Shown: in pieces, positions 5,272 to 64,000 of the stretch
Numbering within the stretch: the stretch's first letter is position 1
Layout of the letters: every line of letters begins with the position of its first letter
IMG/VR virus record: IMGVR_UViG_3300010389_000003
Span: 1 to 64,000 of that record
DNA: 64,000 nt
DNA from: a virus
Direction: 5' to 3' (one strand)
Made by a program: the position numbers and the translations under genes
The notes under the pieces: generated by a model
Databases searched by the model: none
What the model saw: the letters and a program-made list of their open reading frames with translations, nothing else
Told to the model about the DNA's origin: nothing

Positions 5272-6237
5272 ATGATGGAACAGAGAAGGGACGTATATAC
5301 GAGATACTCATCGGTTCAGGCGGCGGGATCTCCACTTTACTCAGATAAGCCGATGCTACGAGCAGATGGTCACATGACATTTAGGGAATTCATTGCCGTT
5401 GTTGAAAAACTTTGGGAAAACATTCATCCAGATATCCCGATCCGACCAACGCAATCTGAAGAATTTGCTAAATATCCAGTGATAGTTTATTCATTGGAAC
5501 TTAGAAAATCCCATCCGTCAGAACCCAAAGCCAAGTACAGGGAAGAGATCGTGGACGATGATGGGACAATATATTCCATATATGGTCATCGTCTCGATAA
5601 TCTAATAGCCTTCTCTGCAGTGACACGTAACAATCCGAAGTTGGCAGAAGCTATCATAGAGCAATTCGAACTCTTCATGGACGAATATGTGGGCACCCTC
5701 AAGCAATTAGGTGCATCAGAGATAGTCTTCTCCAGAAGAATGTCCGATCGGGACGAAAATAGAACCAATGAAGATGTCGATGTAAGGACAGCGGTATATA
5801 AAGTTACCCTAGAAAGAGTCAACTACGTTGCTGAAGCGAAACTTGAAAGCATCAGGACTGAAGTTCGAACCTTCCTCGAGTATCAGCGCGTTCCTTCGTT
5901 TGAGGTTACTGAAGCACAGGTTGGGACTAACGAAATCACACTGATTCAGAAAAATGTGATCGTTAAGGTGGGGGATCTTATCGTATTGAAATCCATCGAC
6001 AATAGATTCTTTAGATATCCATATGGAACCGTAGATGGTAACACCTACCTGGTAAGCGCAGTAACCACAGACACAAGTACAAGTCCGGCAACTTTGACAC
6101 TAAACCTGACAACCCCAGCGGGTGTCGATGTCGAGTTTGCATCATCAGGCAAGGGCGTGTGGCTACATACGGTCAGAGATAATTTGCCAGTCGCCATTAT
6201 AGACCAACAAGCTGAAGGAGCTACTCCATCCTACTGA
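5272..6237 (+). CDS. Probable tail terminator/completion protein with extra C-terminal beta domain
   Basis: YPVIVYSL...DNLIAFSAVT...AEAIIEQFELFM pattern; immediately upstream of the sheath gene. Confidence 0.55.
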   Translation: MMEQRRDVYTRYSSVQAAGSPLYSDKPMLRADGHMTFREFIAVVEKLWENIHPDIPIRPTQSEEFAKYPVIVYSLELRKSHPSEPKAKYREEIVDDDGTIYSIYGHRLDNLIAFSAVTRNNPKLAEAIIEQFELFMDEYVGTLKQLGASEIVFSRRMSDRDENRTNEDVDVRTAVYKVTLERVNYVAEAKLESIRTEVRTFLEYQRVPSFEVTEAQVGTNEITLIQKNVIVKVGDLIVLKSIDNRFFRYPYGTVDGNTYLVSAVTTDTSTSPATLTLNLTTPAGVDVEFASSGKGVWLHTVRDNLPVAIIDQQAEGATPSY

Positions 6238-6359: not shown

Positions 6360-7673
6360 GTGGCTCTTCCTGGAGTGTCTACAGTAATTAAAGACCGGTT
6401 TTATAGTCTGTCAAGGACGAATATCCCCACCGGTCCGCGCGTTGCTATTATTGGTCGTCGTACTATTAGTGAATCTTCGGATGTAAACACTGATGGGACC
6501 GAAACCTATATCAATAATGCCACCGCGGTTACTGATGTTGATCCGTATAACGCAGCCGATGAGCAGAGCGTTATCCAGATCTTTGGGTACGGCTCAGACG
6601 TACATCGGGGATATATTGAAGCGATTGCAGGTGGAGCCTCAAGGGTAACACTCATTGCCCTGCCATCTGATACTACTTTTAATCACACGGATGGTACGAT
6701 CGAATCTGCCACCTACACCGCATTGATAGGAAGCAACACGCTTTTTGACGATGTATTTTCTGCTGCAGAGTCTGCACGGGCAGATATCATTGTCCCGTGG
6801 GGCCGTGGTTCTGGCACTACCGAGTTCCAAAGCCCAGCCACACCGGGTGATGACACTGAGCTAGGCTTCCATGCTGATAACTCAACGGTGTTTGTTAACA
6901 GCTGGCTAGCCAAGGTTGCCAGGAAGTGCAAAACCATTACGGCTAATTCGCACCCATGCTTTGCTGTTATGGGTATTGCACCCTATATCGGTGCAGCTAC
7001 GGCGAATGGTGGTATGACACCGGCAGCTGTACAGGGTCACATTGGTTCCGCTGGAATGGCCTCTCTCATTGAGCGAGATAACAGTAACCTAGATAATGAT
7101 GGCGTTTATGTTTCTGTTGTTGCAGCAGAAATTCGCCCGGTTGGATACAACGCCGCGAGCAATCTCGGCTACTCAAACGGTGCAGCCATGTATGCTGGTG
7201 CTATCGCAGCGCTAGATTCGTGGTCTGCTCCCACCGGCAAGGTTGTGTACAACGTGGAATCACTGCGTTACAACCCAACCAGAACACAGCAAAATGCGAT
7301 GATCGCAAAGGGTGTTGTCCCTATAGCGCTTGACGCAAACCGTATAGCACGCTGGGTTGATGCTTTGACATTCAGCAAGCCGCTATCAGACTACACTCGT
7401 CTAACAACCCTAAGAATCGTTTTCGATTCTGTCCTTATGGTTCGTTCTGTCTCACAGAAGTTCATTGGCGAGGCTTCAAACCTACAGGCACGCAACTCTC
7501 TCGAAACAGCAATCACCACAGGCTTGCGCACGATGCAGCAAGAAGGGTCTTTGATTTCGAGTGACTTTACAGTAAGATATGTATCAGCGGACAACGAAGC
7601 ACTGATTGACCTAGTGCTTCGCCCTGCATTCGAGCTTCGTAACATCGAAGTGTCAGTAAGCGTCCAACTGTAA
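6360..7673 (+). CDS. Major tail sheath protein
   Basis: N-terminal ALPGV; C-terminal LTTLRIV...KFIGE...RNSLETAI...LRPAFELRNIEVSVSV; GGAGG RBS; followed by the tube gene. Confidence 0.88.
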   Translation: MALPGVSTVIKDRFYSLSRTNIPTGPRVAIIGRRTISESSDVNTDGTETYINNATAVTDVDPYNAADEQSVIQIFGYGSDVHRGYIEAIAGGASRVTLIALPSDTTFNHTDGTIESATYTALIGSNTLFDDVFSAAESARADIIVPWGRGSGTTEFQSPATPGDDTELGFHADNSTVFVNSWLAKVARKCKTITANSHPCFAVMGIAPYIGAATANGGMTPAAVQGHIGSAGMASLIERDNSNLDNDGVYVSVVAAEIRPVGYNAASNLGYSNGAAMYAGAIAALDSWSAPTGKVVYNVESLRYNPTRTQQNAMIAKGVVPIALDANRIARWVDALTFSKPLSDYTRLTTLRIVFDSVLMVRSVSQKFIGEASNLQARNSLETAITTGLRTMQQEGSLISSDFTVRYVSADNEALIDLVLRPAFELRNIEVSVSVQL

Positions 7674-33080: not shown

Positions 33081-34229
33081 ATGGCACTTTATTTGAAAAA
33101 GCAACGTTCAGAAATCCTAAGGGAAGCATTGGAAAAGGTTTCCAAAAACTCGAACCTCACAGCAACTGGGCCCGGCTCAATTATGCGAGCCCTCATAGAG
33201 AGTGTGACAACCGAGATCGGTGATCTCTTCGATGCTATGGATTTCAACATTGCCCAGAGCGTACTTACTACCGCGAATGGTAGAGCCTTAGATAAAATAG
33301 GTGCCCTGTATAATGTCAGGCGTAGAGAACTGTCGAATGTCACGGCCATCACCGCTACGGTCGGATCTTTCTACTTCTATATAGACTCACCATATATATC
33401 AGATATTGTTATACCACAAGGAACGATCGTCTATACCGCCACAGATGATTTTATTGGTCGGCAGTTCACATACCAGACAACCGAAGCTACGACAATTCCA
33501 GCAGGTCAGACGTATGCGTATGTGGGGATCAGGCCCAAATTCACAGACTCGGTCTTTACAGCTGGCGCTGGAACTCTAACTGTCCACAATTTTGTGGCAC
33601 CAGCTGGGGTCTCACTTCTTTGCAACAACGCAAAAGCAATCCCTTCGCAGATCGGATATGAATTGGATGATGACTATAGGCTTCGAATCACAAAGGGTAT
33701 CAGGGTCACTTCTGCGGGAACTCCTGAGGCTATTCGCTTCAAGGCCCTGTCTTACGAGGGGGTTCGTGATGCAAGGGTCATTCAGAACCCTTATGGTTTA
33801 GGGTCCTTCAAACTTCTAATAGTGCCAGAAAACATAAGCAATGGCAGTATACTCGTGCGTAGAATCATGAACGAGGTAAAGGCCGTTGCACCCGCAGGAT
33901 CAACAATGTTCTTGGCGCTACCCGAATCACTGCCGTTCGATGTCTCCGTAAACCTCACCATTTCGGGAAACACTACCCAGCCGACAAGAGAAAGAATACG
34001 ATCAAGAGTAAAAAGTATTATCCAAAGATATTTGAATAATCTGCTCCCAGGTGATACAGTAGTCTATAACCGAATGACATCTCTAATATTCGCAGCATCG
34101 ACGGAGATTCTGGATGTGCAAGTTACAACTTATGCCGCAAACGGGACAGAACTAGTGCGTAAAAATTATACCCCTGACATAGATCAACAAATAGTTCCTG
34201 CTGGAATTACTGTAACGACATCCAACTAA
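33081..34229 (+). CDS. Baseplate J-like protein
   Basis: GSIMRALIE, TANGRALDKIG...RR, VIPQGT, ELDDDYRLRI, GTPEAI...GVRDA. Confidence 0.9.
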   Translation: MALYLKKQRSEILREALEKVSKNSNLTATGPGSIMRALIESVTTEIGDLFDAMDFNIAQSVLTTANGRALDKIGALYNVRRRELSNVTAITATVGSFYFYIDSPYISDIVIPQGTIVYTATDDFIGRQFTYQTTEATTIPAGQTYAYVGIRPKFTDSVFTAGAGTLTVHNFVAPAGVSLLCNNAKAIPSQIGYELDDDYRLRITKGIRVTSAGTPEAIRFKALSYEGVRDARVIQNPYGLGSFKLLIVPENISNGSILVRRIMNEVKAVAPAGSTMFLALPESLPFDVSVNLTISGNTTQPTRERIRSRVKSIIQRYLNNLLPGDTVVYNRMTSLIFAASTEILDVQVTTYAANGTELVRKNYTPDIDQQIVPAGITVTTSN

Positions 34230-34240: not shown

Positions 34241-35506
34241 GTGCAGAACATAAACGACTTCATTACCGCAAACTATCAGGACATGACAGATAGTGAGATG
34301 GCAGCAGCAACAGGCATCTCTACTAAAGCAGTAAAGAATAGACGTCATCGCATGGAGCTCTTCAAAGACAAGGCATTTCCTTCTACGCTTCATGATGGCC
34401 CAGTCACAGAGAGCGTAGAGAGCCTTGAGAAGCTCCTGAAGGACGTAGGAGAGGTTGGGAGAGTATCTCTCACCAAGTACGTCAGCGTTAAGGACAAGGG
34501 CCCTGACGAGCCTCCTGAGACGACTACGAACTACACCACTAGGGTTGCGGTTCAACCAGCGGTAGAGCCACAGTGGGACCATATAAGACAGGCACCTCCA
34601 GTAGAGATTCATCCTGTCCAAATCAAGAAGAGCAAGCGAGATACCAAAATTGCAGTAATCTTGCCCGATCCCCAGATCGGTTATAGGTTCGATCCAGAGA
34701 CCAAAGAATTCGATTCTTTCCACGACGAACACGCCATGAATGTGGCGTTGCAGGTGATACAAGAGCTTCAGCCCGATCAGGTAGTAAACCTGGGTGATTA
34801 TCTTGATCTCCCACAGTATGGGCGTTTTGCTCAGGAGCCATTCTTTGCTCACACGACGCAGCCCGCAATAGATCGAGGTTCGTCATTTCTTGCTGAACAA
34901 CGAGCATCGGCTCCTAAATCTGAGATTGTGGTGATTCAAGGCAATCATGACAAGCGATTAACGGAATATCTCAAGATCAATGCTATGGCTGCCTGGGGTA
35001 TAAAGCGGGCCAACTCCGAGATGCATGAGCCACCGGTGATGTCTATCCCCTTCCTGCTTCGATTTGAGGATATGGACATTAAATACGTTGAAGGTTACCC
35101 AGCTGGCGAGTACTATATAAACGATCACCTGAAATGTATTCATGGTAAAAGAACTGGTCGTAAAACCCGTATAGCACCTACCGTTGTGGAAGACGAAAAA
35201 GTATCAACGATCACTGGTCACAATCACCACATCGAGGTGGCCTACCGCACAATACATAAACGGAAAGGTCTATTCATGCCGTTTGCTGCTATTCTCGGAT
35301 GCTTGTCCAGAATAGATGGTGCGGTACCATCGGTACATTCCTCGTTGGGTGTCACTGGTAGACCCATAAGAAACTATGAGGACTGGCAACAGGCTATCGG
35401 CGTCGTGTACTATAACGATGAAGACCCAAATCCTCAGCTGGACATAATCAGAATCTTTGAAGGTCGTGCAATCTTCCAGGGTAGAGAGTACGTATCTAAC
35501 ATCTAG
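34241..35506 (+). CDS. Calcineurin-like metallophosphoesterase with N-terminal HTH
   Basis: PDPQIG, NLGDYLD, IQGNHD, CIHG, TGHNH motifs; N-terminal TDSEMAAATGISTKAVKNRR. Confidence 0.88.
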   Translation: MQNINDFITANYQDMTDSEMAAATGISTKAVKNRRHRMELFKDKAFPSTLHDGPVTESVESLEKLLKDVGEVGRVSLTKYVSVKDKGPDEPPETTTNYTTRVAVQPAVEPQWDHIRQAPPVEIHPVQIKKSKRDTKIAVILPDPQIGYRFDPETKEFDSFHDEHAMNVALQVIQELQPDQVVNLGDYLDLPQYGRFAQEPFFAHTTQPAIDRGSSFLAEQRASAPKSEIVVIQGNHDKRLTEYLKINAMAAWGIKRANSEMHEPPVMSIPFLLRFEDMDIKYVEGYPAGEYYINDHLKCIHGKRTGRKTRIAPTVVEDEKVSTITGHNHHIEVAYRTIHKRKGLFMPFAAILGCLSRIDGAVPSVHSSLGVTGRPIRNYEDWQQAIGVVYYNDEDPNPQLDIIRIFEGRAIFQGREYVSNI

Positions 35507-35514: not shown

Positions 35515-38500
35515 GTGAAACGTTATTATCTTAGACTAACTGAATCCGATTTTGTTCAAGATGGTGACGTCTGGGTTAGCCCTGTGTATGACCTGTACGA
35601 GAACGCTTCGTATACTAACTACTCAACACTTAAGTCGGCATATGGTCCTGATGTTTTAGGTAATAGGACATGGGTTGGTCTGAATTACAATTACAGCACC
35701 AACGAATCGGAGACTGGCAGGGTTTCCAATGGCAGGTATATAGATAAGTCTGGTCGAATTGATATTCGGTCATATGAGCTAGAGAACATAGTCGTTGCCG
35801 GTATGGAGTCCAATATTGATTATGGATTCTCTGTGTACACAGCTACTGAAGCCGATGCCGCAACCCCTTATCAGTGGACAGAAAATCTTAATCTATCCAG
35901 GAACATAGGCGTATACGATTCTAATCAGTACGCTTATTTCAAGTTAGAATTCACTGATGATAGCGATAAGTCCGACATGACTTTCGATCTTCTGATTCGT
36001 GTTGACATTGCACGTCCCAATATTGCACCTCTTTATGAGAGGTCCAGGAAGATACTGGAAAAGTTCCCTTCTTGGACAGAGCTATATACGGATTCGGCCC
36101 TTCTAGCTACACCTAACTCTGCCACACCGAGCACTTTGGGTGGGCTATTCATCAATTCCATGGCCGGTGAATGGCTAGAGGAAATGGATGAAGATGTTGA
36201 TGATCTGAGGGTGGATCAGTTCATTACGACAGCAGATACCGGGATGGTCTCCCTGGTATACGTCGTTCAGATGCCAGGTATCGATAAGGTATGGAGTGTC
36301 GTTGGTGATGGTGTCACATTATCTAACTGTTATGATCTTGATGATTTCTACGAACTCGATGATACTGAAGACGGCTATTTCTGGACACCAACAGAACAGG
36401 CCCTCTATCTGCGCAAAAATTACACCACTATAGAAATCAATGGATCCAGTGTTTATGACACGACCGCTGCAACACCATCGGTGTTCACGCCTGCCACTAG
36501 ACAAATCTGGAACTGGTTCGATGAATTCGGTCTGAGGGTTGACCTTTACAGGCTTCCCGAAGAAAGTAATGAGTCTTTCAAATCAAGAATACTCGATGTT
36601 TACATCAACAAGCCCGGTGCGGGCAGAGAGGCATTCAAGCTAGCGCTAAGGCGAGAACTAGATACCTGGCAGTCTTTCGGGGCATCCCCAGACTCCAATT
36701 ATCTTGGCGCTACTCCAGAGATATATGATCTCGAGGAGCTACGCAATCTCGTAGATGGTGCATCACCCTATATGGGTTTCGATAACATTCCAACCGAGAA
36801 GCTAAGGTCACTTGTCCAGTGGATGTCAGACGAATATCCCACTACGTGGGGTCACTTCAAGTGGGGTCAGGCGCTATGGGATGTTGGTGGAGAAGAAGCT
36901 GAGGGTTACTCTAACCTGCCATACGGCTTCGATGCAGCTTCTGCAGAAAGTCTTGGTCTGGAACACGCAGGCGTTGGCGATGGCGATGATCTTTATGTCT
37001 ACCGTCCAGACGAATATACCGGCCCGCAAGAGTTTAGTCTCAACTTTAAAGCACGTGGTCATCAGAAGTCCACGGTAACTGGTTATCCTGGAGTAGACGT
37101 AGAACTTGCTATTTATGGCACAGGAACCTACGACGAATACACCAACCCAACACAGACAGAGAACTTCTGTTTGCGAGTGACTACAGCATCCGAAACGTAT
37201 CACACCAATTTCCAGGTAAGTGTTGCCAGTAACTCTTCGAAGTTCTCCCTCACTGATACAAGCTTTGTAACTCGTAGCTTCTTTGAAGATGATGGCCTTT
37301 CAAGGGAAGAGCTGACTTGGTATGATCTTGCCGGTAATGAATACTCGGGTAGCGAGGCAACCCCATTCCAGTTGGCCTTCGAAGATCTAACCAATATAGA
37401 ACTGGTACCCGGTGAATTCTCTGCCGGAAGCACACCTGCGTTTATCAATGCTCCGACAGGCAATACAGTAAGGGCTTGGTTCTCTGAAGACTCTGGACCC
37501 AATAGTGTACCGGTGGGGGCGTCTTCCCTGGTGACTGACGGCACCATGAGAATGGGCGTCACTGGGCATGATGGTGCGATAACATCCGGCAATGCTTACC
37601 ATGCATGGGTAGCATTCACATATGATACTGCCACCACCTTGTCAGAAGATTCGGTACTAATAGGTAATACAACTTATAATGGTGGTGCCCCACTGTGGGA
37701 TGATGGATGGGTGCTCGGGATCAATGCATCGGATGGGCTTTTCGCATTTGCGAGGGATGGCGGTTCCAACGCTACGAACACACATGCTGATGCCATCACG
37801 GATGGCGAGGTTCATGTGGCGTTCATTATTGTCGATGACAGCAGCGCCGATCTGACGGTATCTCTGGATGGCGTTGTGGAAACTGATAGCGGCGTAGGGT
37901 TCACTACGGTTCCAGCTTCGCATACCAGCATCGTTGTGGGTGCAGCTGTAACGGGATCGGAAATCGATGGGGTCACGATACATGGTTTCGGCGGCGGAGA
38001 CACAATACCCACTACCGATGAGATTCGAGGTGTAGGAGCCTACTTCGGAGCGAACGAAGGCGTGCTAGAGTATGCCTACGACCTTTTCACTGCAGAGGCA
38101 TTTTTGAGCCTGAATGTTCCTGAAGCACCGTATTCAGACGAGAAGTCGGTTGACATCACCGACGATCTAGCGGCGATTGACTCGGGCGATATAGTTCTCG
38201 ATACAAACGTATACAATAGAGCATCAATGTGGCAATATGGAGATACGGTTCTTGCCGCTAACGGAATTGGTTCGGCAACCCCGATCATATCCGACTTGGT
38301 ATTCCAGTCCATAGTGTCAACACCTACGTCGAGCACAACCTGGACATCAGATCAGTTTGTAGAAAATCTTACCATAAACGGCGATCATCCCCTTACATCG
38401 ACCAAAGATGTAACCATTTTTCCGCCTGTCGATTCGATATTCAATGCAACAGTGTCAGCAATTATATCTTCACCTGAAATAGTATTTGATTTAATAGGGG

Positions 38501-40644
38501 ACGTCGGATCCTCTGTTGATGCAGCTGGCGCTGCTGCGTCGGTCCCGGCCGCATCAATCTCAATTGACGGCAACGATTTTGGCACCTCTGATCCAATAAC
38601 GCTTAGCTCTGCTGCAAGTTATACAGCATCGAGCACATACCAAACTGATGTTACAGTATTGACAGACTTTGAAGCCACATACTCCAATGCCGTATCCGGC
38701 ACAGTGGATATAAATGGTCCATGGAGAAATGGTAATCCTCCCGCATTGGGCAATGTCAACCAGGTTTTGGAAAACATCTCTTTGACTCGATCTAATTTCG
38801 GTATCGCGAACAGTGCAGATTATATAGTCAGATGGATTGGCGTCGAGGTTGCTAACAATTCCAGGGTAAGCGCATGGGTTGATGCAAACACCGTTCTGCC
38901 CGCTGTAGACGAAGGACTTGTAGGCGAAGCATCTTCCTATCCGTCTAACGCTATACTTGAGCAGGAGTCTGGGGGAACGTATTCTTATGCGGCTTTCCCG
39001 GTTAAGGTCAGAATCAAGTCTGGACCAGACAAAGAATGGAATCCGTCCGTCCACGCTGGCTATTACTATGAGGATGATAGGGAAGTATATCTATACGCAA
39101 ATGAGGGCAATGAAACTGCTACTCCGGATTCTGATGATCACATACTTGGTACTGTGGCCAGGCAAGGAGCGCCCATCATTGTCAAATCTGACGATGGAAC
39201 CGAACTGCGCCACGTATCATTCTGGAACGCTAGCACTCCGGGAATATCTTTGGTTCACACGGAGACCGTGTATGGATCTGGCACCAACAAGCTATACCTG
39301 GGCTACGAAAATCTTTATGATGTGACCGTACAGGATATCACGACTGGTCGCACTGTGGTCGCGGATACTACCACTGCAACGCAAATTTTGACCACGTCCC
39401 AAGTGACAGAACGCGATCATCAATATGAGGTAACCTATAAGCTGGTCAACTCATTTATAGCGGATAACACTTACATCTATACTGATGGAACTCAGAGGAC
39501 TAAGCTGACATTCGATAAGACTCCCACCTCAGCTGGCTTTGGAAATTATGAGATCTGGTACGAAAAGAACAAGTACAACCCCGCAACTCCAATCTCACTG
39601 CCTCTGCATCCATTCTATACTGTTATAGATGAGGGGTTCATATTCCTATCTGATAACGAGTATGACCTTTCTGATAGCGTTGAAGTAAGGTTCTCTCCGT
39701 CATCCATCGTTGCCGACGGAAATGACTACATCATGATGAGCCTCAGAACCTATGACATATATGGTAACCCAAAGCCCAACCAAGACTTCACCTTGAGCAC
39801 CGATTTTGGTAGTTTCGACTACAGTGGAGCGACCCCTTCCAGTGTTGATATCACCACTGATCGAGATGGCTTCTTCAGCATACCCGTCCTGTCTGCCTCC
39901 AGTACGTCAGGTACCACCGGTACTGTGACCATCACAAATGGTCTGACCGGAGACTTCACATTCACCATTGTTCCATCAAAGACTCCTACGCCAACGCTGG
40001 TAGCAGCAGTCACATCCGATAGGATACCCGCAGATGGGCTATCTCAAGTCTATGTGTACGGAAGGTATACAGATACTGACCGGTCTCCATTGGCGGGCGA
40101 AACGATCAATTGGCGCAAGGGTCGCCATATATACGACATGTTTGGCCTCGCCAGGAGTTCAGACCCTGCGACTCCTACAAGTACTTCTTTCGCTGGAGAG
40201 GTTACTACTGATAGTGACGGCAAGTTCGTGATAGGTCCATTCACCGCCGAAGAGCCCGCTTATCCCGGATATTGGTTCGTTGGGGTAGAGGGCACCTATA
40301 ACGGTGGCATGGATTACCAGGGGGATGTTGTTTTCTGGCAGGAGTATCCAGATGTGATCTATGGTGTGGAGATTTACTCTGGTTTACCACAGTCATCGGT
40401 GCAGGATCTGGAGTGGTGGGATATACCAGATTACGCAACGCCATTGAGTTTCCCGGTAAGCTATGACGAGGCAACTCCGACCTATGGAAGCACTCCATCG
40501 AGTAACCTGATATGGGAGCCACCCAAGTGGTACGCCATTGATAAGTACACCCAGTATCAGCTCAATCTGCTTGGCTCAGATTACTATGAGTATGATTACA
40601 CAACAGCCCAAGCCAATGAACACCCAGATTACAAGGAATTGTAA
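35515..40644 (+). CDS. Large baseplate wedge/fibre protein with LamG-like and Ig-like (Big_1) domains
   Basis: WNWFDEFG...RLPEESNESFKSRI wedge-type segment; DGEVHVAF..LTVSLDG LamG-like; two IVADG/IPADG..D..G.P Big_1-like repeats. Confidence 0.7.
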   Translation: MKRYYLRLTESDFVQDGDVWVSPVYDLYENASYTNYSTLKSAYGPDVLGNRTWVGLNYNYSTNESETGRVSNGRYIDKSGRIDIRSYELENIVVAGMESNIDYGFSVYTATEADAATPYQWTENLNLSRNIGVYDSNQYAYFKLEFTDDSDKSDMTFDLLIRVDIARPNIAPLYERSRKILEKFPSWTELYTDSALLATPNSATPSTLGGLFINSMAGEWLEEMDEDVDDLRVDQFITTADTGMVSLVYVVQMPGIDKVWSVVGDGVTLSNCYDLDDFYELDDTEDGYFWTPTEQALYLRKNYTTIEINGSSVYDTTAATPSVFTPATRQIWNWFDEFGLRVDLYRLPEESNESFKSRILDVYINKPGAGREAFKLALRRELDTWQSFGASPDSNYLGATPEIYDLEELRNLVDGASPYMGFDNIPTEKLRSLVQWMSDEYPTTWGHFKWGQALWDVGGEEAEGYSNLPYGFDAASAESLGLEHAGVGDGDDLYVYRPDEYTGPQEFSLNFKARGHQKSTVTGYPGVDVELAIYGTGTYDEYTNPTQTENFCLRVTTASETYHTNFQVSVASNSSKFSLTDTSFVTRSFFEDDGLSREELTWYDLAGNEYSGSEATPFQLAFEDLTNIELVPGEFSAGSTPAFINAPTGNTVRAWFSEDSGPNSVPVGASSLVTDGTMRMGVTGHDGAITSGNAYHAWVAFTYDTATTLSEDSVLIGNTTYNGGAPLWDDGWVLGINASDGLFAFARDGGSNATNTHADAITDGEVHVAFIIVDDSSADLTVSLDGVVETDSGVGFTTVPASHTSIVVGAAVTGSEIDGVTIHGFGGGDTIPTTDEIRGVGAYFGANEGVLEYAYDLFTAEAFLSLNVPEAPYSDEKSVDITDDLAAIDSGDIVLDTNVYNRASMWQYGDTVLAANGIGSATPIISDLVFQSIVSTPTSSTTWTSDQFVENLTINGDHPLTSTKDVTIFPPVDSIFNATVSAIISSPEIVFDLIGDVGSSVDAAGAAASVPAASISIDGNDFGTSDPITLSSAASYTASSTYQTDVTVLTDFEATYSNAVSGTVDINGPWRNGNPPALGNVNQVLENISLTRSNFGIANSADYIVRWIGVEVANNSRVSAWVDANTVLPAVDEGLVGEASSYPSNAILEQESGGTYSYAAFPVKVRIKSGPDKEWNPSVHAGYYYEDDREVYLYANEGNETATPDSDDHILGTVARQGAPIIVKSDDGTELRHVSFWNASTPGISLVHTETVYGSGTNKLYLGYENLYDVTVQDITTGRTVVADTTTATQILTTSQVTERDHQYEVTYKLVNSFIADNTYIYTDGTQRTKLTFDKTPTSAGFGNYEIWYEKNKYNPATPISLPLHPFYTVIDEGFIFLSDNEYDLSDSVEVRFSPSSIVADGNDYIMMSLRTYDIYGNPKPNQDFTLSTDFGSFDYSGATPSSVDITTDRDGFFSIPVLSASSTSGTTGTVTITNGLTGDFTFTIVPSKTPTPTLVAAVTSDRIPADGLSQVYVYGRYTDTDRSPLAGETINWRKGRHIYDMFGLARSSDPATPTSTSFAGEVTTDSDGKFVIGPFTAEEPAYPGYWFVGVEGTYNGGMDYQGDVVFWQEYPDVIYGVEIYSGLPQSSVQDLEWWDIPDYATPLSFPVSYDEATPTYGSTPSSNLIWEPPKWYAIDKYTQYQLNLLGSDYYEYDYTTAQANEHPDYKEL

Positions 40645-43600
40645 ATGGAGAATTTCGTAGACAGAACTACAGCAGGCAATGAGCGAGCCTTCCGAAGGGG
40701 AAAGCGAGTTCCCGATGGGGACGTTAACCTTGCATGGGTCAAATCGCCTGAGCTTACGCCAGACAATAACATAGTCATTCTGGATACGTCCCGCACCACA
40801 GAAGAAAACAGGGTCGATGCCCCAAAAAAGACTCAGCTCATGTATGCCAATTCACTGGGCATACTGGAGGATGAGTTCGGTAATCAAGTGATAGATGACG
40901 AATATCCCTGCGTGGCTGATGTCTTTACCCAAGACGAAGACTTTCTGCTGGTTGAAGGTAGTGAGTACGAAGATGATGACACACTCCCGTTTGTCCACAT
41001 CAGCAGGTATCTCCATGCCGATTTTGTTGGGATTACTTTGGGCACAGAACTCCATACTTATTCATCGGAGTCCTTGCAAGTAGTTGATCAACAGGGTAGA
41101 AACTATGTTGACGACGCAGGTGAACCGAAATATAAGATCAAGATATCACCGGCCTACAACTCAGTCGTGGACACAGTCATAGATCAGTCCACCGGTATCT
41201 ATAGGGTTTGGGCATTCGTAGACAGCAACGCCAATGAAAGTTTGTACCTCAAGTACAACAAGGTAGAGCTTGACACTTCTGGTGAGATCCGTAATCAAAA
41301 TGTCGATTACACAGAGATACTGAACCCACAACCGTACTTTACGTATGTTCCAGAAGAGAGCGACGTTGTGGATCCAGCGAATCATCGCAAGAAGATCTAT
41401 ACAACTAAGCCGATCAACAAGAAGAACAAGGCTGTCGGCCAGTCCCAGAAAGATGTTGAGGGTTATAGGGTCTACGTGCCTAAGAAGGCAGTGCCTGATC
41501 CAAGGCTTTATCAACTCTTCAGGTGGAGAGTTACCTGCGATTTTGTGCAGGACTATAAAGTGCGAGCCGACAAGATTGATGAGGATACCCTAGAGCAGGT
41601 CAATGTCGGTGTCATTGTCACGAATCAGAATGATAGCAGCTATGCCGCTTATGCTCTGCACAATCTCGAGAACAGTAATTATAACAAGTCGAACGTTAGA
41701 TTTGTCAACCCCTTTGCCAGCACCACCGAGAAGCAGACTGCTGCGTACTGGGAAGTCAACTTAAGCACCATTAATACCGCAGATCTATCAACATACGACA
41801 TGCTGATACTGTCACCTGTCAATACAACATTTGATGTCTCACCGATACTTGGGAAGATAGATCATTTCGTGAACGTTGTCGGTGGCACTCTGCTCATAGA
41901 TACGAACAATCAATCAATCCTCAATAACTTTGGTTTTACCTTCTCCAACACCTTCTATCCGGTTAATGGTGGTACCAAGACTACTGGCTCATCTTCATAC
42001 CCATTAAGGGGAACGACAATCTCCATCGAGGACTCGACACATGAGATCATAGATGGACTCACGAGCCTTGGTGGCTGGCCTATTACTGATGGTTCCAGCG
42101 ATAATTTTGAATCAGTTTCTTTGTATTCAAACGGAGTTTTGGGTGAATACATTCAGTCTATAGAATCCTACCCAAGCGACTATGATGAAATTTTGACGGG
42201 AACAACCACTAATGGAGCTACCAAGCCTGTTCTGGTTGGGAAAACAGCCATAGCAGATTCTGGTAGCAGAAAGGGGAAGGTTTATGTATGCACCTCAGGG
42301 TTGACATACTCCGTCAATGCCTTTGTGGATCCGGATACTGGCAAATTGAAGTACGCCAACTATGGCAGAGACAATGTTATCAATACGGCTGATTACGATT
42401 CATATATTAACTCTGTTTATTCGGCCACTGCTGCGAAGATGCTATACAACATGGCTTTGTTCTCCACTAAAGGCAAATACATTAATGTAGATCTTACCGG
42501 AGATTACAGTTCGGTATGGACCGTGAATTCCAATTGGGCTTCAAGTTGGGTTATCGACGGATCAGTGCTGACTGACTACGAAAAAGGAACCAACGATTTT
42601 GTCTTCCTTCCAAAGAACCCTGTTGGGGATACCGATACGGTATGGCAGAGGCGCTTGGGCACGAAAAATCTAAAACAAATGATTGATGAGCAGCTTGTCG
42701 ATTCACAACTTACTCGACTTGATAATGCAACTCGTGTTTACAGGATAGAAACAACTAATGCAGCTGTTAACACGCCTGTAACCCTTTCAGATAATACGAT
42801 ACCTCATGCCTGGACCGAGTCTTACAGTCCAGTATTCAATGTTCCCATTGAACTCGGCGCCCATATTGTGAGATCCGAATTGATCCAAGGCGATTTCGAT
42901 GCGGGCACCTATGTGCACAAGTCTTACCCGAGCAGAAATTACGATCTTCAAACTCAGATAACTCACACTTATGAATCCGATGCTTTCGTAAATCAGACAA
43001 CTACATGGACCGCTACTGGTACGGCCACAAAGACAACAACATACAAAGGTACGACAAAGGTATCAGAGCCTGTTACCACGACGAGTACCAGAACAATAAC
43101 GCGAGATGAAGAGATAACCTGGGCTGATTCAGGCTATGGCACCTATAGTGCAATGCCATCTTCCATCCCGTGGGGAACGGCTCAAAGGCCCAACGGTATT
43201 ACTACTTGGCAGGAGCAGAATTATTTCACAACAGCGTGGGGTTCCGGCCTCAATAGCTGGCCCTACTGGGGCATGACGTCTAGATACAGCACGGGTGAAA
43301 ATGCAAGGGGAGAGGTTGTTCAGTTTATCCAAGCTGCACTAAATCAGTTTATCTTCTGGGGGATTGTCAATGTACCGTTCCTGCCCGAGGATGGCTCGTT
43401 CGGCTCTAGAACTGCGGCGGCAGTGAGAGCATTACAAGTAGCTAGAAATGCCAAGTACGTGGACGGCATCGTGGGGGCCGAGACATGGGGCATGATTGGT
43501 TTTCAGATTATTAGAATTGGTCAGTTGATTGGCGCGAACAAACTAAAAGGTCAAGCGGGCTATAAGAGATTCTTCGGTTGGCCGTTTGATCGTTCAGACA

Positions 43601-55734: not shown

Positions 55735-57774
55735 GTGAATAACAGCCATCTCTCATTTACGTTGCCAGAAGATTTCATCAAAACCTACTCAAAGAAGCAG
55801 CCCAATTGGGGCTTTCCTGTTGGTGGTGGTAATAGCCTTGGTGAGATTACTTTCCTTACTAAATACTCAAGAAAGAAAGAGGACGGATCAAAGGAACGCT
55901 GGTTCGAGGTCTGTAGAAGATGCGTAGAGGGTTACTACTCAATCCTCAAAGACCACTGTAAACAGAACCGGACGCCATGGAACGAGAATAAGGCGCAGGC
56001 TGCTGCGCAAGATGCGTATGATAGAATGTTTGCTTTTAAGTGGCTTCCGCCCGGTCGTGGACTGTGGGCCATGGGTACTCCTATGGTTCATGAGGATCGT
56101 GACTCAGCGCCCCTGTACAATTGCGCCTTCATTTCAACCGAGTTTATTTCAGCGCGATCGAAATACGATGCCACGTATCCATTCGTGAGACTGATGGAAA
56201 TGTCAATGAACGGAATCGGTGTTGGCTTCGATGTGGCTGGTGCTGGTAAGATTGAGCTTCATCAGCCACTTGAAGACACATGGACCTTTACCGTGCCCGA
56301 CACTAGAGAGGGCTGGGCAGAAGCGCTGGGTCATCTGTTGGAGTCTTTCTTCTTCAAGAACCGTAAGACTGTGTTGTTTGATTATTCCCTGGTACGGCCA
56401 GCCGGTGCTCCTATCAAGAGATTCGGAGGTACTGCATCTGGTCCAGAACCACTTGCTTTCACCCTAGAAAAGGTGCGCTCACTTCTCAGCAATCGTGAGG
56501 GCGGTAGAATCACTTCTCGTGATATTGTGGACATCAATAACCTCTCTGGCAAAGCTGTTGTTTCCGGCAACACGAGAAGATCAGCAGAGATAGCTTTGGG
56601 CTTTATTGATGATGATGATTTCATTAATATAAAGAACTGGGAAAGAGAAGAGAATTCTGAACGCATGAAGTACGATGGTACCGGTTGGGGTGGCCTTAGC
56701 AATAACACGGTTATCATTCGTGATGAGGAATCACCTGCTACGCTGGTCGACAGTATTGCCATCAACGGTGAGCCAGGGATCTTCAACATCGATCTAGCCA
56801 GAAAGTATGGCCGAATGGTTGATCCTGTAGATCCGAGTTTGGATTCGAAGGTAAGAGGTCTTAACCCCTGCGCTGAAATAACCCTTGAACATAACGAGCT
56901 ATGCAACCTGGCAGAATCCTTCCCACAGCATCACGATTCCATGGAGGACTATCTCCGGACAGAGAAGCATGCATACTTATACAGCAAGGCGGTAACCCTT
57001 CTGCCCACTCCTTGGCCCGAAACAAACGAGGTCATTGCAAGAAACAGAAGAATAGGTAGTTCGATGTCTGGTATTGCACAGTTCATCGAAAGCAATGACT
57101 GGGCAGTTCTGAGAACCTGGTCCGACACTGCCTACCATGAGATTCAGCGTAGAGATGAGCAATACTCTGAATGGTTGGGTATCCGTAAATCAATCAAGAC
57201 AACAACCATCAAGCCTTCCGGAACGGTGTCCATTCTTTGTGGAGCGACACCGGGAGTTCATTGGCCGGTTAAGAGTGGCGGCTACATTCGCCGTCAGCGT
57301 TTCTCAGCGGAAGATCCAATCGTCCCCATTTTCATTGAGGCTGGATATTATGTTGAGCCATCAGTCTCTGATGAGGGTACCGTTGTTGTTGATTTCTACA
57401 CTACCGGACCGGAGATGAGAGACGAGCGACAGGTTTCCGTGTGGGAAAAGGTTTCTGTTGCCGTTCTCATGCAGCGTTACTGGGCGGACAATGCCGTGTC
57501 AGCAACGTTCACATTTACGCCAGAAGAGGCAGATCAAATACCTCATGTCATCTCAGCCTATGGTGATCAGTTGAAGACACTCAGCTTTCTCCCGCTTGGT
57601 GAAGCCTCTTCTCCTGGTATGTATCCCCAGATGCCCTATGAAGCAGTGGAGGACAAGAAGTTTGAGGAAAAGGTTAATAAAGTCAAACGTCTTGACTTCG
57701 ACATGCTGTATCATGGTAACCTAGGAGATGTCGATGCAGAAAAGTTCTGCACGAATGATACATGTGAGATCTGA
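55735..57774 (+). CDS. nrdJ: Class II (adenosylcobalamin-dependent) ribonucleotide reductase, monomeric RTPR type
   Basis: PPGRGLW, NCAF, RRSAEI, NPCAE, CNLAE, TTIKPSGT, C-terminal CTNDTC redox pair. Confidence 0.93.
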   Translation: MNNSHLSFTLPEDFIKTYSKKQPNWGFPVGGGNSLGEITFLTKYSRKKEDGSKERWFEVCRRCVEGYYSILKDHCKQNRTPWNENKAQAAAQDAYDRMFAFKWLPPGRGLWAMGTPMVHEDRDSAPLYNCAFISTEFISARSKYDATYPFVRLMEMSMNGIGVGFDVAGAGKIELHQPLEDTWTFTVPDTREGWAEALGHLLESFFFKNRKTVLFDYSLVRPAGAPIKRFGGTASGPEPLAFTLEKVRSLLSNREGGRITSRDIVDINNLSGKAVVSGNTRRSAEIALGFIDDDDFINIKNWEREENSERMKYDGTGWGGLSNNTVIIRDEESPATLVDSIAINGEPGIFNIDLARKYGRMVDPVDPSLDSKVRGLNPCAEITLEHNELCNLAESFPQHHDSMEDYLRTEKHAYLYSKAVTLLPTPWPETNEVIARNRRIGSSMSGIAQFIESNDWAVLRTWSDTAYHEIQRRDEQYSEWLGIRKSIKTTTIKPSGTVSILCGATPGVHWPVKSGGYIRRQRFSAEDPIVPIFIEAGYYVEPSVSDEGTVVVDFYTTGPEMRDERQVSVWEKVSVAVLMQRYWADNAVSATFTFTPEEADQIPHVISAYGDQLKTLSFLPLGEASSPGMYPQMPYEAVEDKKFEEKVNKVKRLDFDMLYHGNLGDVDAEKFCTNDTCEI

Positions 57775-57933: not shown

Positions 57934-57936
57934 AAA

Positions 57937-59670: not shown

Positions 59671-59890
59671 GCATCTCGCAATTGTTGGCTTGTTGGCTCT
59701 GATGATCCTCTCCAGAAAGGCAACCGAGAGAAAGCACATCAAGGAAGTTCAGATGATGACGAGATTAGGTGAATTTTTTGATAAACAGGATCTCACCTAT
59801 GCGAAAAAAGATTATCTAAACCTGCGCAGCCACTACAGTCCGGAGCAATCATTCAACATGGTGGTCATCAAGGGCGGCGGTGAAATATGA
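59645..59890 (+). CDS. Hypothetical protein with N-terminal hydrophobic segment
   Basis: LAIVGLLALMILS; ATGA overlap with the downstream GT gene. Confidence 0.55.
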   Translation: MSRPMKKTEHLAIVGLLALMILSRKATERKHIKEVQMMTRLGEFFDKQDLTYAKKDYLNLRSHYSPEQSFNMVVIKGGGEI

Positions 59891-60660
59891 TCGACCTCTG
59901 TGTGGTCAACTACAAGACCCCAAAGCACCTGAATCGCCTACTCGAAACACTCTGCCGCAGAGAGGGCAATTGGAAACTCTATATAGCCGATAACGGTGGA
60001 GACGAAGAGTCCGCTAGGGTGATTAACAAACATGCCGAGTTTATAGAGCATGCGGTATTCAATGAGAACATAGGATACTCCGCTGCCTGCAATCAATTGG
60101 CTTCTATGGGCGACAGCAAGTATCTCTCTCTGCTCAATGCAGATGTTTGGATGAGACCCGAGCATGTCGAAGCCATCGAGGAGGTGCTTGAGTCTGATGA
60201 ATCCATAGCCATATTGGGTCCCAAGCAGATGAACGAAAGAAACGAAATAGTCCATGCTGGAATCATTGGAACCAATACCCATCCAGCACATAGGGGTTGG
60301 CGCGTGGTGGATCACCAAGACACCATGTTCAAGGATCGGATAGACTGTGTAACCGTATCCGGTTCTGCATATTTCGTTCGTAGAGATGTGTGGGAAAAGC
60401 TGGGAGCTGACCCTGAATATAGAGATTTGTTCCCTGATGCCCTTGGCCCCTTTTTGCTTACACCTCATTACTACGAGGAAACCTTTTGTTCCTATTTTGC
60501 AAGACATAGGGGTTATCGCGTTGTCTATGACGGCACCGTCACCATTGGGCATTCATGGCATGCCAGCTCTGATGTTGGTGGTAGTGCAGATAGAATGTTC
60601 ACGGTATCCAGAGACATATTCCGCAAGACATGTGAACACCTCAACATAGCAACCGATTGA
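59887..60660 (+). CDS. Glycosyltransferase family 2 (WbbL/rhamnosyltransferase-like)
   Basis: VVNY, ADNG, NIGYSAACN, LLNAD, VSGS, YYEET. Confidence 0.88.
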   Translation: MIDLCVVNYKTPKHLNRLLETLCRREGNWKLYIADNGGDEESARVINKHAEFIEHAVFNENIGYSAACNQLASMGDSKYLSLLNADVWMRPEHVEAIEEVLESDESIAILGPKQMNERNEIVHAGIIGTNTHPAHRGWRVVDHQDTMFKDRIDCVTVSGSAYFVRRDVWEKLGADPEYRDLFPDALGPFLLTPHYYEETFCSYFARHRGYRVVYDGTVTIGHSWHASSDVGGSADRMFTVSRDIFRKTCEHLNIATD

Positions 60661-60679
60661 ATTTTTCTGTAAAAAGGCG

Positions 60680-60708: not shown

Positions 60709-60744
60709 AATCCACAGCTTACAACCAACAAAAAAGGAAGCATA

Positions 60745-60927: not shown

Positions 60928-60950
60928 CCCAAGGTACACTAATAGAGTTC

Positions 60951-61016: not shown

Positions 61017-61718
61017 ATGAAAATAGTCGCCAACATGATTGGTTACAACGAGGCAGATAGATATCTACCCGAAGTGTTAGAACATTTACGGCCCCTGGTT
61101 GATGACATTGTTTTTACTGATGACGCCTCAACTGATAACACGCTGGAAGTGGCAGAGGGCTTCGGTGCACACGTGTATGCAAGCCTCTGGAAAGAGCCCA
61201 TGTTCAAGATGAACGAAGCTCGCCTTCGTCAGTTCTCTTGGTGGAACTTGGAGAACCACGCATCTGTTGGTGACTGGGTCTTGGCAATTGATTGTGACGA
61301 GAAACTATACGAGACGTTTGACGACATTAAGATGCGTGATCTTATCCAGGAAGAGGACTTCGATGTCATCAACATCAAGTTCGTACATATGTGGAGTCGT
61401 ACACACTTTAGGGTAGACAAGCTGTGGGCTCCCACCGACTCTCAAAGACTGTTTAGGTTCAGAGAAAACGCACAATATCGAAACAAGAGATTAGCTTGCG
61501 GCGCAGAGCCAGCATATGTTATTGAGGCATTGAGACAAAATAGATTCCTCGTGAACAGTGGTCTAGTGATGCAGCATCTGGGGTATGCCGCCGAAGGAGA
61601 TAAGGACGTTAAGTACCAAAGATATATGGAGCTTGATAAGGGCCAATATCACAATATCGATCATCTAAATTCCATCATTGACGAAGAAGTAGAACTAGTG
61701 GAGTGGAAGCTTTCCTAA
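61017..61718 (+). CDS. Glycosyltransferase family 2
   Basis: YNEA, DDASTDNT, WVLAIDCDE, HLGY. Confidence 0.85.
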   Translation: MKIVANMIGYNEADRYLPEVLEHLRPLVDDIVFTDDASTDNTLEVAEGFGAHVYASLWKEPMFKMNEARLRQFSWWNLENHASVGDWVLAIDCDEKLYETFDDIKMRDLIQEEDFDVINIKFVHMWSRTHFRVDKLWAPTDSQRLFRFRENAQYRNKRLACGAEPAYVIEALRQNRFLVNSGLVMQHLGYAAEGDKDVKYQRYMELDKGQYHNIDHLNSIIDEEVELVEWKLS

Positions 61719-62401
61719 TGCCAAGAGTAAGTATTATCTTAACCTCATACAACAGACCATATTTCCTAATGCAGTCGATCTGCTCTGCAATCAATCAGAC
61801 CAGCAGAGACTTTGAGTTGATTGTGTGTGACGACAATTCGCCAGACCCCTTAGTAGAAGAGATTCTTTCTACTTTTGAAGAACATGATGATCACGTAAAG
61901 GTTTATCGCAGTGGGGTAGCGGAAGAGGACAGATATAAGACTGCGCGATACGCGACCATGATCAATCACGCAGTAAGAAACATTGCAGAAGGTGACCTCA
62001 TTACATATCTTACCGATGATGATATCTTCTATCCAGATAGAATCGAGAGAGGCATTGCAGCTTTTGATAACAACCCGTCTTATCAGGTTGTTTATTTTAA
62101 TCAGAATGTTTTAGATCTAGATCTTAGGATATGCGGCCAGCGTGAATTTGGAGACAAGCCCGTCTACAAAGCAGGGGATGCCGTTGATCATAATTCTGTC
62201 ATGCATACAAAAGAGTTGTTCGATAGGGTTGATGGTTGGCCTGATATGGAACACCTGTGGGGTGGAGCAGACGCTGGGTTCTTCAAGGGAATCAATGACA
62301 AAGGCATAGCTTTCATGCCAGTCGGCGGCGCACCGGGAGATGGTCATCGGTATCACGAAGAGTCCGTACAATGGAAGCTAGCCAACGGAGTCTTTGGGTA
62401 A
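61718..62401 (+). CDS. Glycosyltransferase family 2 (SpsA-like)
   Basis: VSIILTSYNR, SAINQT, DDNS, YLTDDD. Confidence 0.9.
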   Translation: MPRVSIILTSYNRPYFLMQSICSAINQTSRDFELIVCDDNSPDPLVEEILSTFEEHDDHVKVYRSGVAEEDRYKTARYATMINHAVRNIAEGDLITYLTDDDIFYPDRIERGIAAFDNNPSYQVVYFNQNVLDLDLRICGQREFGDKPVYKAGDAVDHNSVMHTKELFDRVDGWPDMEHLWGGADAGFFKGINDKGIAFMPVGGAPGDGHRYHEESVQWKLANGVFG

Positions 62402-62931
62402 TGGACATTACAGTTGTAACACCGACGCTGCCACAGAGAAGCCCACTATTGGCAGAAGCTGTGGCTTCGGTTTCCAAACAGACCCATCAGGTATCTGGGC
62501 ATTTGATTGGAGCAGACTATCGGCGTGATGGTCCTGTTGATATGAGAAATCGGCTCATCAATATAGTGGACACAGAATGGACTGCGTTTCTTGATGATGA
62601 TGACATACTCTTCCCTAAACACTTTGAGGTTATGCTACCCTACGCAGATAAAGCCGACTTGATCTGGACCTGGTGTGTTTCAGAGGGTAGGGGCAGCTTT
62701 AACCCGAACAGCAGCTTCAATGAGCGTAGACTTAGAGAGGATGGCAATTATATACCCATAACGGTAGCGGTCAGAACAAGCTTCTTACGTGAAGTTGGTG
62801 GGTTCAGAGAACATCCACAGGAAGATTGGGACCTATGGGTACGCCTTCTTGATGCAGGTGCTCGATTTCTTAATGTGCCTGTGATAACATGGAACTATAG
62901 ATTCCTTGGAGAGAATAGGACATTTGGATGA
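62401..62931 (+). CDS. Glycosyltransferase family 2
   Basis: ITVVTPT, RNRL, AFLDDDD, VGGF, EDWDLW. Confidence 0.9.
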   Translation: MDITVVTPTLPQRSPLLAEAVASVSKQTHQVSGHLIGADYRRDGPVDMRNRLINIVDTEWTAFLDDDDILFPKHFEVMLPYADKADLIWTWCVSEGRGSFNPNSSFNERRLREDGNYIPITVAVRTSFLREVGGFREHPQEDWDLWVRLLDAGARFLNVPVITWNYRFLGENRTFG

Positions 62932-63629
62932 AAGATTTGACGATTGTTATTCCATTTAGGGCTGCCAGTGAACGTCGCATGCAGATAATGGATTGGATTT
63001 GTAACAGATATAGAATATTGTTTCCCGAATCAAACATTGTTGTCTCGGATTCCGATAAAGATAAGCCCTTTAGTAGGGCTCAGTCTAGGAACCATGGGGT
63101 AGACATGGTTGATACGGAATATCTTTTGTTAGCTGATGCAGACACGATACCGTTTCGTCCCTTCATTGAACTTGGTGTCAAGGCACTTCAGGAAGGTGCA
63201 AACTGGGTAGTGCCTTATGGTACTAGAGGTTTCTATGTCTTGAAGAAACCATTTTCAGATAAGTTGCTATCTGGTCCGCCCGATGCATTTGTTACGCCGG
63301 ATACATTTGAATGGCTACATCAAACCGAATCATGGGGAGGACTTATCTTGATGAGAACAGAATCCTTCTACGAGGTCAATGGTTATGATGAAAGATTCCA
63401 GGGTTGGGGATACGAAGATAACGCTTTCCAGCGTGCGATGGATACGATCATCGGTGAGTTTACTCGCATCGAATCAGGATGGAGCGCTCACCTGTGGCAT
63501 GAAGCACCCATGGAAGAGACCTGGGAGCACCCACAAATAAAAGTCAATATTGACAGATTGAGTCATTATGTAGAGGCAGTAGGCAATCGTGAACAAATGC
63601 TTTCTGTAGTAAGCGGAAATAGGATTTGA
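62928..63629 (+). CDS. GT-A glycosyltransferase with GT7-like C-terminal motif
   Basis: IVIPFR, FSRAQSRN.G, DAD, NGYDERFQGWGYED, HLWH. Confidence 0.88.
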   Translation: MKDLTIVIPFRAASERRMQIMDWICNRYRILFPESNIVVSDSDKDKPFSRAQSRNHGVDMVDTEYLLLADADTIPFRPFIELGVKALQEGANWVVPYGTRGFYVLKKPFSDKLLSGPPDAFVTPDTFEWLHQTESWGGLILMRTESFYEVNGYDERFQGWGYEDNAFQRAMDTIIGEFTRIESGWSAHLWHEAPMEETWEHPQIKVNIDRLSHYVEAVGNREQMLSVVSGNRI

Positions 63630-63632
63630 TTG

Positions 63633-64000
63633 ATGGACAAGCTTAAGTTGAACATCATAGGTGACACATTCACCTATAGACATAGTGGCAATAAGGGCTT
63701 CTCTGTTCACCAGAAAGAAGCAAAGCACCTGGAGTGGACTCAAGATGGCTCCGGGGTTGGCTCTGTTTATGTCGATGTAGCAGTCCATAGGGGTCAGAAT
63801 TTCAATTTCGGTGGCCCCAGATATGCCTGGTTGTATGAATCGAAATTTATAGTTCCGGGTCCAACGGCAGATGTCTTGTCTCACACTGATTGGTATTTAG
63901 ATAACTTTGACTTGATCTTCACACACGATCAAGAGATATTAGCTTTGAGCGACAAATGCAAGTTCGTTCCAGCTAATGGGATCTGGATCGAAGAGCCCAA
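63633..64000 (+). CDS. 3'-truncated probable glycosyltransferase (GT10/fucosyltransferase-like N-terminus)
   Basis: Open frame MDKLKLNIIG...YAWLYES...FDLIFTHD...FVPANGIWIEEP runs off the window; family call from recalled pattern only. Confidence 0.5.
   Translation, partial: MDKLKLNIIGDTFTYRHSGNKGFSVHQKEAKHLEWTQDGSGVGSVYVDVAVHRGQNFNFGGPRYAWLYESKFIVPGPTADVLSHTDWYLDNFDLIFTHDQEILALSDKCKFVPANGIWIEEP

Follow-up and report, generated by a model that had tools for sequence, protein, structure and literature searches.

Glycosylation of virus particles by virus-encoded enzymes is the background against which we consider a protein rich in the tripeptide Ala-Thr-Pro (ATP), encoded at 35515..40644 (+) in the first 64,000 nucleotides (nt) of the IMG/VR virus record IMGVR_UViG_3300010389_000003 (hereafter the window). 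To our knowledge, virion glycosylation by phages has been demonstrated in a few actinophages only, and we know of no simple acceptor motif defined for it; the literature searched for a phage virion sequon or for phage glycoproteomics held nothing relevant. The mycobacteriophages Che8, Corndog, and Myrna reportedly O-glycosylate their virions with phage-encoded glycosyltransferases. The phage studied here resembles them in having glycosyltransferases of its own and virion proteins as the proposed acceptors in the host cytoplasm. In the mycobacteriophages, which are siphoviruses of Actinobacteria, the glycans have been demonstrated chemically on capsid and tail-tube subunits, whereas the candidate acceptors here are baseplate, fibre, and sheath proteins, and their sharply defined three-residue candidate sequon, predicted from sequence, is scattered through folded domains. 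What would be new is thus a defined tripeptide acceptor candidate on these outer proteins of a large uncultured myovirus clade.

The N-terminal domain of GmaR from Listeria monocytogenes transfers N-acetylglucosamine to flagellin (PMC9638930). This domain is the best solved relative of one of the two candidate transferases of the phage, here called GT-b, and both are small soluble glycosyltransferase (GT) domains of the GT-A type. GmaR acts on Ser and Thr of a folded structural protein ahead of its export and assembly. It differs in that its similarity to GT-b covers ~105 N-terminal residues, and its tetratricopeptide repeat (TPR) and anti-repressor domains have no counterpart in GT-b. We know of no A-T-P sequon reported for GmaR.

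Chloroviruses glycosylate at atypical sequons with virus-encoded enzymes, as in Vp54 of PBCV-1, and giant viruses of the Mimivirus group glycosylate their fibrils. They share with the phage their own transferases and nucleotide-sugar genes, glycan clusters that vary across a clade, and non-cellular acceptor motifs; they differ in infecting eukaryotes and, for PBCV-1, in an N-linked attachment, and the likeness considered here is one of features. Mucin-type O-N-acetylgalactosamine acceptors favor Thr over Ser and have Pro nearby, as in XTPXP-type peptides. The phage motif likewise shows a strong Thr preference and Pro at +1, and its location in predicted loops would be in keeping with the exposed, unstructured segments of mucin-type acceptors. 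It differs in its depletion of Pro at +2 and +3 and in its enzymes, as no GT27 catalytic domain combined with a ricin-type lectin domain was found with Pfam in the glycosyltransferase genes of the window.

The Ala-Thr-Pro motif in the 1709-residue protein and its family

The gene and its product are as follows.
35515..40644 (+): ATP-rich virion protein of the baseplate module, an open reading frame (ORF) with a GTG start, 1709 amino acids (aa)

The protein contains 13 ATP tripeptides, at residues 116, 198, 203, 319, 399, 615, 921, 1202, 1357, 1439, 1552, 1641, and 1653, which is exactly the number counted in the original prediction and in the contexts listed there. Its composition alone leads to an expectation of 0.62 (order-0 model, P 1.7e-13), in line with the earlier estimate of fewer than about one, and a first-order Markov model (Markov-1) raises this to 2.56 (P 3e-6). 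The highest count in 20,000 shuffles of the protein was 5, and ATP was the most deviant tripeptide by a wide margin. Among the 22 Thr-Pro dipeptides, 13 are preceded by Ala and 4 by Ser; beside these 4 Ser-Thr-Pro (STP) there are 2 Ala-Ser-Pro (ASP), so that the several STP and ASP noted before are indeed present, and 1 Ser-Ser-Pro. Self-BLASTP of the protein (word size 2, E up to 10) detected no internal repeat, which rules out repeats as the source of the motif, and the flanks of the sites are mutually unrelated.

The enrichment extends to the whole family, examined here as 81 homologues at 26-63% identity plus the query (82 sequences). ATP was the most enriched tripeptide in 80 of the 82 (79 of the 81 homologues and the query), with 6-21 copies each vs 0.2-0.9 expected; the single ATP-poor member, P0057, has 1 ATP in 2440 aa, and two collection scans turned up no genomic locus for it. 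The pooled family holds 1123 ATP vs 40 expected, a ratio of observed to expected (O/E) of 28. The ratio was 5.6 for STP and 4.1 for ASP, and it did not exceed 1.1 for any other residue before Thr-Pro (0.9 for Gly) or 1.7 for other tripeptides of the form Ala-x-Pro. The permutations APT, TAP, and PTA reached 0.3-0.8, and a mere succession of NCN codons is therefore not responsible; TPA (2.6) and PAT (4.0) were higher, probably in part by overlap with ATP sites. Of the 64 codon combinations by which ATP can be encoded, 57 occur among the 66 distinct homologous ORFs, with usage near background. The codon diversity and the permutation counts rule out a motif at the DNA level or an NCN codon run.

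Outside the motif the preferences are weak, with Asp or Asn favored at -3, Gly at -2, and either Ser or Asn at the positions +2 and +3. The whole stretch from -5 to +5 is clearly poor in Lys and Arg, and Pro is depleted at the positions +2 and +3. Judged from these counts, the motif is [A>S]-[T>>S]-P, ordered and selected at the protein level rather than the DNA level. Two earlier claims are borne out by these results: that no DNA repeat accounts for ATP, given the lack of self-similarity, the unrelated flanks, and the codon combinations in use, and that it is a selected short linear motif, given an ordered enrichment beyond composition that is not a repeat and that recurs in unrelated outer virion proteins (see below).

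In the alignment of the 82 sequences, ATP occupies 161 columns, of which a few are near universal and many are clade-specific. Homologues with 46-49% overall identity to the query retain 11-12 of its 13 ATP sites; at 20-30% identity ~30% of the sites are shared, yet ATP counts stay high. Where ATP is absent from a shared site, STP or ASP mostly takes its place, and the sites are conserved far above average residues. The O/E by alignment column was 18.7 in lineage-specific inserts, 43 in mid-occupancy columns, and 28.7 in the core. From this combination of retention and turnover, purifying selection seems to act on each site, with sites being slowly lost and replaced. The individual sites of the query are listed below, all on the + strand.
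35860..35868 (+): ATP at aa 116-118; few homologues share the site
36106..36129 (+): twin ATP sites at aa 198-200 and 203-205 (LATPNSATPS), in a coil between two helices; ATP at aa 198 in 56 of 82 sequences and at aa 203 in 53 of 82
36469..36477 (+): ATP at aa 319-321, almost confined to the subclade of the source phage
36682..36717 (+): conserved loop G-A-S-P-D..G-A-T-P-E, with ASP at aa 390-392 and ATP at aa 399-401
37357..37365 (+): ATP at aa 615-617, in a coil; 35 of 75 homologues
38275..38283 (+): ATP at aa 921-923, in a coil of low confidence
39118..39126 (+): ATP at aa 1202-1204, in a hairpin loop immediately following a strand
39583..39591 (+): ATP at aa 1357-1359, in the linker preceding Big_1; ATP in 52 of 82 and STP in 15 of 82
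39829..39837 (+): ATP at aa 1439-1441, in a loop within the Big_1 domain
40168..40176 (+): ATP at aa 1552-1554, in a long loop; 30 of 55 homologues
40435..40479 (+): ATP at aa 1641-1643 and 1653-1655, in a C-terminal coil

In the conserved loop, the ATP at aa 399-401 is nearly universal (79 of 81 homologues), and the ASP of the query at aa 390-392 is ATP in 60 homologues and STP in 16.

AlphaFold2 (AF2) models and fold searches predict an N-terminal LamG/galectin-like beta-sandwich, a helical domain, and many Ig-like beta-sandwiches; the mean confidence (predicted local distance difference test, pLDDT) was 73.6 for aa 1-880 and 79.8 for aa 860-1709. Big_1, at aa 1390-1477, is the sole Pfam match. 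The fold searches returned generic LamG/galectin-like and Ig-like (invasin, intimin, macroglobulin) matches only, and a specific baseplate homologue can therefore not be named. Homology to gp162 of the Bacillus jumbo phage 0305phi8-36 and to CDS49/50 of the Moorella phage MTATph1 extends over the N-terminal helical domain and a C-terminal block. According to its database record, gp162 is a virion protein by mass spectrometry. The homologues in these distant Firmicute jumbo phages have 0 ATP: the G-A-T-P loop is replaced in both, and the Moorella phage homologue has no motif at the position of aa 1357-1359. Because these proteins keep the fold with 0 ATP, the motif is not intrinsic to the fold.

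Other virion proteins that carry the motif

The contig of the source phage (103,983 bp) has 96 ORFs besides the ATP-rich gene. They contain 9 ATP vs ~6.5 expected, and none is individually significant. By class, non-structural proteins have 2 vs 2.0, the four giant structural proteins 1 vs 1.7, and other structural proteins 5 vs 1.78 (P 0.035). Computed protein by protein, as had been proposed for checking, the enrichment thus stands for the main protein and fails for the others taken individually, with a modest signal in the non-giant structural class. As had been stated, only one ATP was found in the four giant proteins (2174, 1356, 2930, and 1746 aa) together, and their homologues in complete relatives have 0-1. 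Similarly, in 76 related IMG/VR loci with 10-kb flanks, the homologue of the main protein was enriched in every one (P 1e-5 to 1e-28) and no other ORF was; the neighboring ORFs contain 76 ATP vs 63 expected in 414,899 residues.

The complete relatives extend the motif to other virion proteins. In the relative G004, a tail-fibre-like protein of 1618 aa has 11 ATP vs 0.83 expected; it is free of repeats and unrelated to the main protein. The relative G016 has a tail-fibre or minor-tail protein of 925 aa with 8 ATP vs 0.45 expected. When the proteomes of the source and of three complete relatives were clustered into 510 ortholog groups, enrichment appeared in the virion-structural family phrog_5906/6002 (9 ATP vs 0.40 expected), in a family of 256 aa (6 vs 0.20), in the family of the structural protein at 5272-6237 (6 vs 0.29), and in the sheath family (6 vs 0.78), whose ATP site is kept in the orthologues of the three complete relatives. 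The proteins concerned are located as follows.
5272..6237 (+): structural protein of the virion, encoded upstream of the sheath gene; its ATP (nt 6220-6228) is close to the C-terminus
6360..7673 (+): putative tail sheath, as labelled in the original prediction, with one ATP at aa 160-162 (nt 6837-6845)
L089:12772-17628 (-): fibre of G004, 1618 aa, with three FN3 domains and no homologue on the partial contig of the source

At the ortholog-group level, no enrichment was found for giant proteins or for genes of replication and other enzymes, and the lone ATP of the ribonucleotide reductase and that of the 2174-aa protein are not conserved in orthologues. A general ATP excess in the other proteins of the contig can thus be rejected: it is not significant individually and becomes significant only with the pooled orthologues of the complete relatives. 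The single copies predicted in the ORFs at 2710, 5272, 6360, and 52343 do exist; none is individually significant in the window alone, and those at 5272 and in the sheath become so after pooling.

In addition, a small ORF just upstream of the ATP-rich gene in the relatives G016 and G019 has ATP motifs (3 vs 0.03 expected). A further ORF at 2-1561 (+), truncated at its 5' end by the contig start, would encode 519 aa (349 aa when counted from its first ATG). Although Ala (17.5%), Thr (12.3%), and Pro (7.4%) are very abundant in it, it has 0 ATP, and it has no Pfam or PHROG match. Since an ORF of 475 aa overlaps it in antisense, the coding strand there is unsettled.

Candidate transferases and the proposed glycosylation

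Pfam identifies five genes of the glycosyltransferase family 2 (GT2) type within 59887-63629.
59887..60660 (+): GT-a, GT2 glycosyltransferase; its best solved relatives are the chondroitin synthase K4CP and, more weakly, GalT1 of Fap1 glycosylation
61017..61718 (+): GT-b, GT2 glycosyltransferase of 233 aa, with Pfam Glyco_tranf_2_4 and Glycos_transf_2
61703..64000 (+): start of a glycan-building cassette, with three more GT2-type genes in the window; it continues to ~71.8 kb of the contig

The best match of the GT-b profile in the Protein Data Bank was the GT domain of GmaR (E 3.3e-9), followed by the next match at 1.9e-4; SunS/ThuS-type matches were weak. The AIDCDE region of GT-b aligns with AIDADE of GmaR, the DxD region. 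All 19 long relatives, six of which are at least 90% complete, have one full-length copy each of GT-a and GT-b, and these two are the only ones of the five GT2-type genes with orthologues in complete relatives; in two of these they are the only GT2 genes. GT-b is conserved more strongly than the structural protein, with at least 50% identity across more than 100 clusters. In two ATP-free outgroup genomes, neither profile had a match, nor did PF00535. The co-occurrence of motif and transferases that had been proposed for checking was therefore observed, essentially as a contrast of one clade with two outgroups.

The cassette from 61703 to ~71.8 kb comprises ~10 kb of genes for glycosyltransferases and sugar pathways. 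Three complete relatives lack a counterpart, and since the genes on both flanks are conserved, it is regarded as a swappable glycan cassette. One of its members, a 233-aa enzyme at 62928-63629, has a short Glyco_transf_7C match only and is not conserved in relatives.

Specificity at three positions, the preference for Thr far above Ser, recurrence in unrelated outer proteins, and absence from distant homologues of the same fold together suggest a trans-acting reader with a defined pocket, as against chance or a structural habit. Because the two transferases are the only clade-wide candidate readers found, and one of them resembles a protein O-glycosyltransferase, O-glycosylation is favored: ATP may be an O-glycosylation sequon for the conserved GT-a/GT-b pair, to which we give a probability of about 0.5. 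The earlier reading of ATP as a virion-surface motif or sequon is supported in part, insofar as the motif is ordered, selected, predicted to lie in loops, and accompanied by GT genes, and its glycosylation is the leading hypothesis. The acceptor would be [Ala>Ser]-[Thr>>Ser]-Pro, situated in loops that lack Lys and Arg and kept by selection on outward-facing virion proteins. The GmaR-like GT-b would be the candidate initiator, attaching the first sugar to the hydroxyl of Thr while the protein is in the host cytoplasm, prior to assembly or in its course, and GT-a the candidate extender that adds a second; the variable enzymes of the downstream phage-specific cassette might then elaborate the glycan. 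The outcome would be a hydrophilic glycan coat over the baseplate periphery, fibres, and sheath. We infer the glycosylation of Thr, the division of labor between the enzymes, and the purpose of the coat alike. A broader proposal, put forward tentatively as slightly under an even bet, is a cytoplasmic, phage-encoded O-glycosylation with ATP as acceptor, GT-b and GT-a as its core, and swappable cassettes, giving large uncultured phages a coat throughout the clade and representing one case of a wider rule of clade-specific tripeptide tags.

Several points weigh against O-glycosylation. The stretch shared by GT-b and GmaR is one half of a generic GT-A fold, the half for the nucleotide sugar. GT-b has no domain beyond the GT domain; because the TPR and anti-repressor domains are absent, it is not classed as a GmaR orthologue. 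The co-occurrence of motif and transferases sets one clade against two related outgroups, which amounts to a single evolutionary contrast and makes it phylogenetically weak. The 1746-aa virion protein is encoded directly downstream in the same module and is of comparable size, and it has 0 ATP.
40645-45885 (+): 1746-aa virion protein, with a PG_binding_1 peptidoglycan-binding domain at aa 888-950

Mapping the motifs on predicted structures, as the original prediction had suggested, placed all 13 outside regular helices and strands, one Thr lying in an isolated bridge. This is consistent with exposure, though as evidence it is weak, because ~64% of the models is coil and Pro favors coil. GT2 islands of phages can also have other roles, such as remodelling the surface glycans of the host, and glycosylation of the ATP threonines is a proposal drawn from sequence. 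Finally, Caudovirales GX15bay (MK557849.1), the only phage with a GT-b homologue in the collection of cultured or deposited phages, carries it at 31% identity in a GT island of its own and shows no ATP excess (9 vs 4.4). At that identity, this result neither supports nor refutes a link between motif and transferase. A protein of 1304 aa in the same phage (L119:42901-46815, +), annotated as glycoside hydrolase family 25, has eight GYW tripeptides (P 4e-11); this excess probably reflects repeated binding modules, and repeats can thus mimic a motif excess.

If O-glycosylation is correct, ATP would be the first sharply defined sequon for bacteriophage virion glycosylation, and glycan coats would be a common trait of large environmental phages that can be read from their genomes, with a bearing on host recognition, protease resistance, particle stickiness, and persistence. 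A three-residue tag enriched 28-fold also provides a directly testable pair of candidate enzyme and candidate acceptor; with O-glycosylation correct, the two would also make a compact orthogonal combination of tag and enzyme for glycosylating proteins in the cytoplasm. If it is wrong, ATP would still call for an explanation, as an unusually clean case of a short motif that selection maintains in one lineage.

Alternative readings and the surrounding genes

The rival that survives best, though we consider it unlikely, is a structural habit, in which a small residue followed by Thr-Pro forms an ST-turn or a cap between loop and helix that stiffens exposed loops and protects them against proteases, and has built up in the outer proteins of this lineage with no reader involved. 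The location of all sites in predicted loops agrees with this, some of them just preceding helices (aa 117-118 and the 399-405 stretch), and so does the depletion near the motif of basic residues, which are trypsin-type cleavage sites. However, a cap should tolerate Ser, Asp, or Asn in the cap position and not discriminate among small residues at -1, whereas the Thr:Ser ratio is ~7:1, Gly at -1 occurs at chance, and Asp or Asn before Pro is not favored. The giant beta-rich virion proteins next to it do without ATP, and the distant homologues discussed above hold the same fold without a single copy.

It seems improbable that ATP serves for docking, with its many low-affinity copies bound by a protein partner (for example a chaperone of assembly, a decoration protein, or a component of the host surface). 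The specificity of the motif at three positions and its recurrence in unrelated outer proteins would fit any trans-acting reader, such a partner included. However, a tripeptide is very short for docking between proteins, and GT-a and GT-b are the only clade-wide conserved candidate readers found; no candidate partner emerged, other clade-specific genes having been left unscreened.

We give marginally less credence to another modification, either proline-directed phosphorylation of Thr or hydroxylation of Pro followed by O-glycosylation of hydroxyproline (Hyp). The Thr-Pro core resembles the sites of proline-directed kinases, and [A/S/T]-Pro forms the Hyp-O-glycosylation modules of plants and green algae; transferases and a nucleotide-sugar pathway are also present. 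However, Ala-Pro and Ser-Pro alone are not enriched, which makes Thr a requirement, and neither a protein kinase nor a prolyl hydroxylase was found in the scanned parts of the contig, a scan that is incomplete.

As the codons of Ala, Thr, Pro, and Ser share C at the second position, one could imagine that the excess is an artefact, produced by composition, by repeats that escaped notice, or by a signal at the nucleotide level, but the probability of this is negligible, as it is effectively refuted by 13 copies against the Markov-1 expectation, the empty self-BLASTP, the freely varying codons, the other orders of the same residues at or below chance (except TPA and PAT), and the near-expected counts in the neighboring genes.

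The position of the ATP-rich gene among its neighbors is defined by two genes upstream, the order being the J-like wedge gene, the metallophosphoesterase gene, and then directly the ATP-rich gene.
33081..34229 (+): baseplate J-like wedge subunit, which puts the ATP-rich gene in the baseplate module
34241-35506 (+): metallophosphoesterase gene (PHROG 20266, E 5e-77; weak Pfam Metallophos)

Farther downstream, at 55735-58641 (+), a class II (B12-dependent) ribonucleotide reductase, which is absent from the relative G004, and a ThyX thymidylate synthase are encoded between the structural block and the transferase island.

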